A DNA stretch of 64,000 bases from assembly GCF_988242995.1 (NCBI RefSeq), contig NZ_OZ547043.1, one strand, 5' to 3'. Below are positions 1,487 to 4,497 of this stretch, piece by piece (position 1 is the first letter of the stretch; every line of letters begins with the position of its first letter). The notes beneath the pieces are model-generated. The model saw nothing but the letters and a program-made list of their open reading frames with translations. It was not told the origin of the DNA and did not search any database. A program made the position numbers and the translations under genes.

Positions 1487-2053
1487 TTATACTCCATAGT
1501 CAGATGACGACTTTCCCAGCATGCGCTTCAGAGTGTCGTCTTTATCGATGAAATGATGCTTCAGGGCCATAAATCCATGCATAACGGACAGTACTACGAC
1601 GCTCCACGCGAGCCAAAAATGCAGGGCACCGGCAAAGTCAGCCTGTGCGCCAGCGTCGGCGAGGGTCGCGGGGACGTCAAACCAGCCAAAAACGCTGATC
1701 GGTTTACCATCGGCAGTTGAGATCAGATAGCCGCTGATGCCGATGGCGAACAGCAATAAGTACAATGCGAGATGTCCAGCCTTTGCGCCAAGACGAGTCA
1801 TGGGCGAATAACTCTGCAGCGGACCCGGCGGTGGAGATATGACGCGCCACAGAACGCGAATAACCAGCCCCATCATTAACAAAATGCCGATGCTTTTATG
1901 CACTTCGGGTGCTTTGTGATACCAGCCATCGTAATAACTGAGCGTGACCATCCACAGACCTAAAGCAAACATGCCGTAGACAATAATTGCGCTTAGCCAA
2001 TGGAAGGCCGCAGATATAACACCATAGCGTTCAGGGGTATTTGTGAATGACAT
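1487..2053 (-). CDS. yceJ: cytochrome b561-family membrane protein YceJ
   Basis: Track ORF 1487..2128; start moved to internal ATG (plus 2051-2053, MSFTNTPERYG) giving 188 aa as recalled for E. coli YceJ; multiple hydrophobic segments. Confidence 0.85.
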   Translation of the reverse strand: MSFTNTPERYGVISAAFHWLSAIIVYGMFALGLWMVTLSYYDGWYHKAPEVHKSIGILLMMGLVIRVLWRVISPPPGPLQSYSPMTRLGAKAGHLALYLLLFAIGISGYLISTADGKPISVFGWFDVPATLADAGAQADFAGALHFWLAWSVVVLSVMHGFMALKHHFIDKDDTLKRMLGKSSSDYGV

Positions 2054-2313: not shown

Positions 2314-2454
2314 CTAAAAATAAAACACATAGATCAGATCCATAATTGCCAACAATCCCCAGAGAAAAAGATAAAGCATCAGATGCTCGCGAATATTATT
2401 GATGAGATAGTGCAACAGCCGACGCATTAAATACTCCTGTAAAAACGGCCTCAT
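2314..2454 (-). CDS. yceO: small membrane protein YceO (46 aa)
   Basis: Hand translation of minus strand: ATG (plus 2452-2454) to TAG (plus 2314-2316) gives [46 protein letters not shown]; below the 60-aa track cutoff; position between yceJ and solA matches K-12 yceO. Confidence 0.55.
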
Positions 2455-2474
2455 TCTGGAGGCCGTAATGATGA

Positions 2475-3593
2475 TTATTGGAAGCGGGAAAGCCTGAATG
2501 GCGTCAAATCAAAATCGCTTTTTTTGTCTTGCGCAAAATCGGCAGCTATTTCCCCTAAAACTGACGCAAATTTAAAACCGTGCCCACTCAGGCCGGTAAT
2601 GAGCAGTGTATTATCGTGGCCGGGTAGGGTATCGATAATAAAATCTTCGTCAGGCGAATTATCATAGGTGCAGGCAGCGCCGTACAGGCAGCAACCGATA
2701 CCCGGCAATACATTGCGCAAGAACGGGAAGGCTTCCGAACCATCGCTGACCACTTCCGCAAACGGAACACGTTCATCCGCTGAATGGATAACCTGGCCTC
2801 CGTTATGTTTGCCAATCTTCAACGCGTCGTTTTCTGCCGGAAAACCATAATATTGATCGCCATTGGGCAGTTCACCGGTAAACGCCGGGAATTTATTCTT
2901 CACGCTATAGCGACCATCGGCCTGATACCAGGCAAATACTTTGCGTATGGGCTGGACAGGCAGCTCCGGGAGCAGGTCTTTTACCCATGTTCCCGCGCAG
3001 ACAATCGCTTTTTTCGCCTGATAATAACCGTCAGCCGTTTCAATAGTTACGCCATCATCGTCATGACGAATTGCGGTGACCGGGCAGTTGAACAGCTGCG
3101 CACAGCCCGCTTCCTTCGCCAGTTGGATCCAGGTTTTAATCGCCAGTTCGCTGCGCAAAAAACCGGAATCAGTCTCAAATAAGCCGATGTAGTTGTCCGG
3201 GACGCGTATTTCTGGCCAGCGGGCCATAATCCCTTGCGCATCGAGCTTTTCAACGTTGAGTTGCCATTGTTTGGCGCTGTGGGCGACGTTGGCGAGAAAT
3301 GTGGAATCAGCCGGGCCAAGGTTAATGACGCCAGAGCGTACAAAAATGGGATCTTCTTCGTTGTGGCGGGAGAGTTCATCCCACAGCGTTTGCGCGCGGA
3401 GAACCAGTGGGACATACTTTTCGCCTTCACCATAAGCATGGCGAATTAATCGCGTATCGCCGTGGTGGCTGCCGTGTTGATGCGGTGGCATATGGGCGTC
3501 GGTCATAAGCACGTTTAAACCGGCGCGGGTTGCATAATACCCGGCGGCAGCGCCTACGGAACCGCTGCCAATAATGATGAGATCGTATTTCAT
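2475..3593 (-). CDS. solA: N-methyl-L-tryptophan oxidase (FAD-dependent)
   Basis: Track ORF 372 aa, N-terminal FAD-binding motif [12 protein letters not shown]; matches recalled SolA. Confidence 0.95.
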
Positions 3594-3661
3594 TTTTTTC
3601 TCTCTGCTCTCATGGTTTAAGCAGAGTAATTAACTGAATGCAGATATACAACCCAGAAATG

Positions 3662-3690
3662 GTAAAGGCACCGGTGAGGTGCCTTTTGGG
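3662..3690. terminator. candidate hairpin downstream of bssS (GGCACC-n5-GGTGCC followed by TTTT on plus strand)
   Basis: Inverted repeat 3667-3683 read directly; weak U-tract on the bssS strand. Confidence 0.3.
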
Positions 3691-3707
3691 TGGATGGTCA
3701 TGTCATG

Positions 3708-3962
3708 TTAATGACGCCGATACTCGTTTACCGGGAAATCACCGGATTCAATTTTGGCGATTCCTGCTTCTAATATCGAAATAAATTGTCTGGCAACATC
3801 AGTGGTTAACCAGAGCGTCTGACCAACTTCAGTCCCTTCCTGCTCGGACTTATTTGGGGTCTGGTAGTGCAAACGCAACATCAGCGCATCATAGCTATCA
3901 ACGGTGCTGATGTCCCACCCTACGAGCGGATGAGTCTGAATGACTTCATTATTTTTTTCCAT
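3708..3962 (-). CDS. bssS: biofilm regulator BssS
   Basis: Track ORF 85 aa begins MM; second ATG (plus 3960-3962) gives the recalled 84-aa BssS (MEKNNEVIQTHPLVGW...). Confidence 0.9.
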   Translation of the reverse strand: MEKNNEVIQTHPLVGWDISTVDSYDALMLRLHYQTPNKSEQEGTEVGQTLWLTTDVARQFISILEAGIAKIESGDFPVNEYRRH

Positions 3963-4251: not shown

Positions 4252-4497
4252 TTATTCGCTGACAAACCAGTCATCGGCGCTTTCCCACGTTTCCTGGAGA
4301 ATTTCGCTAATGCGCTGTTTATCTTCTTTTGTCGCGCCAATAACCGATAAATTATTCGCTGCGGCATAACGTACCGATACGTGGCCTTCATTATCAGGAA
4401 ACGCATACTGAATACGGCGGGAAAGTTCGCCAGCCAGGGCGTCAATAGCCCCAGCTGGCAATGGAGAAGTTTTCGCTATGGTGACTTCAATTCGCAT
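4252..4497 (-). CDS. dinI: DNA damage-inducible protein DinI
   Basis: Track ORF 4252..4629 trimmed to internal ATG (plus 4495-4497): MRIEVTIAKTSPLPAGAIDALAGELSRRIQYAFPDNEGHVSVRYAAANN..., 81 aa as recalled for DinI. Confidence 0.93.
   Translation of the reverse strand: MRIEVTIAKTSPLPAGAIDALAGELSRRIQYAFPDNEGHVSVRYAAANNLSVIGATKEDKQRISEILQETWESADDWFVSE

Follow-up and report, generated by a model that had tools for sequence, protein, structure and literature searches.

The gene yceO, read from the minus strand of the window (the whole 64,000-nucleotide, or 64-kb, stretch of DNA analyzed here), is an already-known, ordinary gene that has been annotated, tagged, and detected. As judged by comparison with related loci, its start in the K-12 annotation was probably miscalled by nine codons, and the conserved gene comprises 37 codons. 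The explanation that best fits the material as a whole, and in which we place considerable confidence, is that of the known yceO as a 37-codon unit that encodes an N-in, partner-binding helix and is expressed by leaky cotranscription with solA. Under this explanation, the unit at 2427 to 2314 would be read from an ATG with AGGAG 6 nt upstream and would be transcribed together with solA, and a hairpin between the two genes would pass only a fraction of the transcripts, giving a very low YceO level. The product would be a single helix of ∼35 residues with its basic N terminus in the cytoplasm, and a conserved face of that helix would bind a larger protein.

The ORF listing of the window contains an uninterrupted frame of 46 codons plus a TAG stop, with an ATG start, at 2314 to 2454 on the minus strand, as a first-pass annotation had read it by hand between yceJ and solA. 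That annotation had also equated the frame with K-12 yceO, and it was right to do so: the DNA across the coding sequence is identical to MG1655 b1058 (YCEO_ECOLI), with no sequence difference, and the gene encodes the same protein and is flanked in both cases by yceJ and solA. The window protein is also identical to the yceO sequence given in PMC10746267 (supplementary file 7). At 46 aa, the frame does fall below the 60-aa threshold that had been said to hide it.

The 471 bases around the ORF were present in 5,414 of 5,426 complete Escherichia coli genomes at 95 to 100% identity, and the order trhO, yceI, yceJ, solA, bssS, dinI, pyrC is the E. coli gene order. The features discussed below are collected in Table 1. 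Some variation was seen around them. In the window and in K-12, dinI lies between bssS and pyrC (∼4252 to 4497); ST2747, which is 100% identical to the window over the 471-nt query, lacks dinI and has only 93 nt at that place, so dinI is variably present. The longest ORF at yceJ (1487 to 2128) runs to a TTG at 2128 and would encode 213 aa, whereas the annotated start is the ATG at 2053; thus, the longest ORF need not be the gene. The spacer from the yceO stop to the yceJ start (2054 to 2313) is AT-rich and has no terminator-like hairpin after yceO.

Table 1. Features at and around yceO (positions in the 64-kb window)
Feature	Position	Strand	Remarks
yceJ (cytochrome b561 family)	1487..2053	minus	Downstream neighbor; 260-nt AT-rich gap; 188 aa annotated
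yceO core CDS	2314..2427	minus	37 codons plus TAG; ATG 2427-2425, stop 2316-2314
Legacy N-terminal extension of b1058 (MRPFLQEYL)	2428..2454	minus	9 codons; not conserved as coding
Shine-Dalgarno AGGAG	2434..2438	minus	6 nt upstream of core ATG
GC-rich hairpin ACGGCCUC-CAGAAU-GAGGCCGU plus U-run	2441..2466	minus	-14.5 kcal/mol; terminator-like
AATAAT, -10-like hexamer	2474..2479	minus	Spans solA stop; speculative yceO promoter element
solA (N-methyl-L-tryptophan oxidase)	2475..3593	minus	Conserved upstream neighbor; stop TAA 2477-2475

Conservation of the 37-codon core

The length of the ORF is by itself no sign of a gene: counted over six frames, ORFs of 46 codons or more number 377 in the window and 369 ± 19 in shuffled copies. 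It is conservation that identifies yceO as a gene, and this conservation covers the last 37 codons only. With the 37-aa core as the query, scanning a single genome for each species yielded 40 loci, belonging to Escherichia, Enterobacter, Lelliottia, Leclercia, Atlantibacter, Huaxiibacter, Buttiauxella, Silvania, Entomohabitans, and Pseudenterobacter. The core Met was encoded by ATG in all 40, and the core was 37 aa long in 38 of them, 36 aa in one, and cut to 14 aa in one, the last being from a genome in which solA is degraded too (Enterobacter sp. EA-1). Citrobacter, Kosakonia, Kluyvera, and Klebsiella, with cores of 37 to 38 aa, were reached by way of SolA orthologues, and the most divergent members (Dryocola, Cedecea, and Edaphovirga) ranged from 36 to 41 aa. 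Downstream of solA, an ATG-started ORF of 36 to 38 codons was found in 52 of 54 loci representing ∼20 Enterobacteriaceae genera. A reading of 46 aa is atypical in length for the YceO/DUF2770 family. An intact 37-aa orthologue is also encoded in Salmonella enterica (HMM E = 1.5e-22; ∼1993 to 2106 of locus L049); it is uncalled in the assembly, where the site appears as a 415-nt gap without a gene call.

Purifying selection marks the core as a protein-coding gene. Across 39 orthologues, pooled pN/pS was 0.25 in the core frame versus 0.48 to 3.1 in the other five frames, and the Jukes-Cantor dN/dS of the core was ∼0.10. For the first, second, and third codon positions of the core, column entropy was 0.64, 0.23, and 1.19, respectively.

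yceO belongs to YceO/DUF2770, a small family confined to Enterobacteriaceae. Pfam model PF10968 (DUF2770) matched with 79.1 bits (gathering score, 25; E = 2.4e-22), and the match aligned all 36 model positions (1 to 36) with residues 10 to 45 of the 46-aa reading only, leaving the first nine residues outside the family. The core product is identical to WP_001253418.1, which is named "YceO family protein." We regard the family as small because HMMER, run exhaustively against 1.84 billion representative proteins, matched only 57 clusters; all named members are from Enterobacteriaceae (Klebsiella, Cedecea, Citrobacter, Dryocola, Edaphovirga, and Enterobacter). Sequence searches of NCBIfam, PHROGs, PADLOC, and PDB with yceO returned no match, and a literature search on "DUF2770" found no papers.

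Within E. coli, intact yceO was found in at least 1,000 contigs each for the 37-aa and the 46-aa calls, and frameshifted C-terminal variants (P0085, P0086, P0091, P0097, and P0098) were found in 1 to 11 contigs each. The CFT073-type allele (P0198/P0199), present in at least 1,000 contigs, has a one-codon deletion that turns LINNIREH into LINIREH and yields 36 aa. This in-frame loss of an Asn from the most conserved motif may reflect relaxed constraint in that lineage. In-frame indels of −2, +2, and +4 codons (P0010, P0036, and P0052) were observed at an L-Y-L-F repeat in the membrane helix (∼2355 to 2372; CTTTATCTTTTTCTC). Separately, an IS1 between solA and yceO in E. coli S9 has eliminated the start of yceO together with the 3′ end of solA, and PGAP marks yceO of this strain as a pseudogene.

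The hairpin after solA and the start of yceO

On the coding strand, the solA stop is followed by 8 nt, the hairpin (2466 to 2445), UUUU (U-run, 2445 to 2441), ACAGGAG, UAUUUA, and the core AUG at 2427. The stem has 8 bp, six of them G-C pairs. In its GC-rich 8-bp stem and U-run straight after the solA stop, the predicted hairpin resembles intrinsic terminators that lie between co-oriented genes and set their expression ratio; it differs from them in that the U-run is short (only 4 to 5 U) and in that it was missed by our consensus scan. That scan for promoters and terminators returned nothing on the minus strand, the hairpin narrowly missing the U-tract rule. The supplementary files of PMC7815308, which are perhaps incomplete, list no RNA 3′ end at the hairpin, and their sole solA entry is internal (1120419). 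An Rfam scan of 1900 to 2800 gave no real match; at E ≤ 1, the one hit was a chance lncRNA hit far below threshold.

In 40 of 46 loci, the 75 nt that precede the core ATG contain a GC stem of 6 bp or more, and its sequence varies by genus (GGCCUC, GGCUCCG, GGCUUCGG, and GGCCCCG). In the two Buttiauxella loci (L038 and L039), the hairpin is absent, the yceO ATG lies 7 nt from the solA stop, and yceJ and yceI are missing downstream; so short a gap suggests tight coupling of yceO to solA. We infer that the hairpin would act as a leaky terminator and that yceO would be cotranscribed with solA.

A possible but doubtful alternative is that yceO has a weak promoter of its own, in which a −10-like [A/G]ATAAT over the solA stop would direct transcripts that start at the hairpin base. 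The hairpin would then, with the same doubt, be a 5′-terminal stabilizing stem-loop too, beyond its role as a leaky solA terminator. The hexamer occurs in 34 of 48 loci, a count inflated by closely related loci, and at 8 of the window's 81 long-ORF stops; it is found even though the last SolA residue varies (Q, K, R, or G), and the hairpin starts 4 to 9 nt downstream of it. However, TAAT is the favored stop context anyway, and 14 yceO-bearing lineages do not have the motif. Moreover, the hexamer has no −35 element, the promoter scan of the minus strand was negative, and the 7-nt gap in Buttiauxella implies coupling to solA. We prefer leaky cotranscription with solA as the probable source of yceO transcripts.

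The published annotations of yceO disagree. The MG1655 record gives 141 nt and 46 aa, as does UniProt, whereas PGAP calls a 114-nt CDS of 37 aa from M10 (WP_001253418.1) in all six of the PGAP-annotated RefSeq E. coli genomes that we sampled, one of them an O157:H7 strain. Comparison of the frames favors 37 aa. It upheld codons 10 to 46 of the 46-aa extent assigned in the first pass, which are kept in close relatives, and spoke against codons 1 to 9, over which the frame is disrupted in those relatives; Pfam and PGAP both begin at M10 and leave the extension out. In Escherichia marmotae and the P0047 lineage (five assemblies), an extra T in the spacer places the upstream ATG 28 nt away and out of frame, and translation from it would run through 19 unrelated codons before a stop. 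Three sister lineages (Escherichia whittamii, Escherichia sp. E1V33, and strain SCPM-O-B-8794) have TTG at codon −9, and Salmonella has an in-frame TAA two codons before the core ATG. The core is intact in all of these. Outside Escherichia, a conserved in-frame upstream start is absent, and stop codons lie 4 to 30 codons upstream.

It is nevertheless conceivable, although we judge it unlikely, that the K-12 annotation is right and that translation starts at the ATG at 2454, the 46-aa form being either the main product or an additional isoform that only E. coli and Escherichia albertii would make. Besides the MG1655 and UniProt records, this reading has in its favor that codon −9 is an in-frame ATG, with no stop codon following, in E. 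coli, E. albertii, MOD1-EC7003, and E69; nine open codons, however, are expected by chance ∼65% of the time [(61/64)^9]. RNA accessibility may also weakly favor the legacy start, since in a predicted 208-nt fold the probability of being unpaired was 0.66 for the legacy AUG, most of which lies in the hairpin loop, versus 0.24 for the core AUG, and we counted this against the 37-aa reading. On the other hand, the legacy ATG has no Shine-Dalgarno sequence and its upstream region is paired: the anti-Shine-Dalgarno duplex is −1.7 kcal/mol for the legacy ATG and −6.9 kcal/mol for the core ATG, whose Shine-Dalgarno sequence is kept across Escherichia as AGGAG, AGGAA, or AAGGG. The hairpin also accounts for the bases of the legacy ATG. 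Two of the bases of this AUG (2454 to 2452) are the final ones of the loop and the third opens the hairpin 3′ arm, and its position at the loop/stem junction explains its conservation in E. coli. The segment from 2428 to 2454 is most likely 5′ untranslated, made up of the hairpin 3′ arm, the U-run, the Shine-Dalgarno sequence, and the spacer. A minor longer isoform could still occur in E. coli proper, where the upstream ATG is kept in frame.

The native start of the 37-codon unit is placed here by comparative evidence only; the available supplementary data of Stringer 2021, PIRT-seq, and Adams 2021 do not list yceO. In a 2025 targeted mass spectrometry (MS) study (PMC12529367), an N-terminal 11-residue peptide, one of the two YceO reporters used, was seen by MS only from a plasmid carrying the 46-aa ORF and a vector ribosome-binding site. 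This shows the plasmid-borne 46-aa ORF to be translatable but says nothing about the native start, because the plasmid carries the annotated 46-aa ORF. If the start is M10, native YceO would not contain that reporter peptide. The same study describes chromosomal YceO-SPA as visible by Western blotting in LB, at a level at least 10,000-fold below that from pBAD, and includes YceO among top-down MS detections (PMC12529367).

A 37-aa yceO holds little new biology, since PGAP and Pfam already use these boundaries; the practical value lies in a correction of the reference K-12 and UniProt gene model, which experiments follow. Deletions designed on the 46-aa ORF also take the 3′ arm of the solA hairpin. 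If the speculative solA-yceO module described below holds, the acid stress and biofilm phenotypes of published yceO deletions may in part be effects on the solA transcript. yceO has been labeled an "acid stress small protein" (PMC12997748, PMC8765455); it showed no significant change under acid stress in RNA-seq, Ribo-seq, or translation efficiency (PMC10746267, supplementary file 7).

Predicted structure and conserved face of YceO

The single-pass hydrophobic peptide that had been predicted from hand translation was supported here. AlphaFold2, run with a 36-sequence alignment, predicted one helix spanning residues 2 to 36 (mean pLDDT, 94.6), and the best 19-residue Kyte-Doolittle window (residues 16 to 34) had a mean of 2.15, within a hydrophobic span of 19 to 22 residues. 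The N-terminal segment (MRR) has a net charge of +2, and the C terminus has a charge of 0. By the positive-inside rule applied to this +2 segment, YceO is probably oriented N-in, C-out.

Across 36 diverse members, N11, R13, and D30 are invariant, and conservation reaches 90% or more at N10, E14, H15, Y19, L22, L26, and Y33. These residues include a juxtamembrane N-x-R-E-H motif (N-N-[IV]-R-E-H) and Asp30 in the membrane segment, all present in the window protein. L8, H15, Y19, L22, L26, D30, and Y33 form one conserved helical face (permutation P = 0.01 for the hydrophobic part). By analogy with other small membrane proteins, this face probably docks onto a larger protein; the pattern is consistent with an interface and does not prove one.

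Gene neighborhood, candidate partners, and known small membrane proteins

In every yceO locus examined, solA lies upstream on the same strand, directly adjacent except in Edaphovirga, where one regulator gene separates the two. In most genera, yceJ and yceI follow yceO on the same strand. Adjacency to solA is kept where yceJ and yceI have been lost from the site, as in Klebsiella, Kluyvera, Buttiauxella, locus L048, and Edaphovirga, and the stable linkage of yceO is thus to solA and not to yceJ. We infer from this that what yceO does would be tied to solA or to the solA transcript and not to yceJ. Kept so strictly across Enterobacteriaceae, the adjacency of solA and yceO offers a lead to the function of both genes.

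In Enterobacter sp. EA-1, solA is partial (55% identity), yceO has 14 codons, and yceJ is 52% identical; the three genes appear to be decaying together. E. albertii NBRC 107761 gave no tblastn match to YceJ or YceI in the 1.4 kb downstream, and other Escherichia loci differ from it in this respect. In Cronobacter dublinensis, a 60-aa ORF (3622 to 3804 of locus L051) occupies the yceO site, sharing 4 nt with the end of solA at its stop; it matched no Pfam family and is not similar to YceO.

A speculative proposal, to which we give little credence, is that solA and yceO form a fixed module in which the leaky hairpin sets a high SolA-to-YceO ratio and YceO would tether or regulate SolA, or a SolA-dependent process, at the inner membrane through its cytoplasmic N-x-R-E-H motif and membrane-embedded Asp. 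If true, this would provide a physiological context for N-methyltryptophan oxidase. We also judge it unlikely that YceO is a small accessory subunit of the cytochrome b561 homologue YceJ, as CydX is for cytochrome bd. Genes for small subunits often lie next to those of the complex that they serve, and the same-strand yceJ-yceI pair that follows yceO in most genera would fit such a role. Against it, yceO occurs without yceJ and yceI at the locus in the five lineages named above, yceO is absent from Cronobacter although solA, yceJ, and yceI are kept, and an AT-rich gap of 260 nt separates yceO from yceJ in E. coli. A function linked to solA or its transcript remains the reading that we prefer.

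We rejected as very improbable the reading of YceO as a hydrophobic peptide akin to type I toxins whose expression an antisense RNA would repress: YceO is a small, hydrophobic, single-helix peptide whose native level is very low (PMC12529367), but it is single copy, with synteny fixed over ∼20 genera and purifying selection, no Rfam antitoxin RNA or other RNA family was found at the locus, there was no PADLOC or PHROG match, and toxicity goes unmentioned in the passages of PMC12529367 consulted, in which cells were harvested 2 h after pBAD induction. A chance noncoding ORF, which we regard as practically refuted even though ORFs of such length are equally common in the window and in shuffled sequence, is contradicted by purifying selection, by a length and an ATG fixed across genera, by the Pfam family match, and by detection of the chromosomally tagged protein (PMC12529367).

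YceO has no sequence relationship to the small proteins of the known pairs AcrZ-AcrB, MgtS-MgtA, MgrB-PhoQ, CydX-CydAB, and KdpF-KdpABC, and we know of no partner for it. The likeness is one of form: AcrZ, MgtS, MgrB, CydX, and KdpF, like YceO, have fewer than 50 aa, a single transmembrane helix, a conserved helical face, and low abundance. What sets yceO apart is its fixed adjacency to solA, a gene for a soluble flavoenzyme, which is unusual among small inner membrane regulators.
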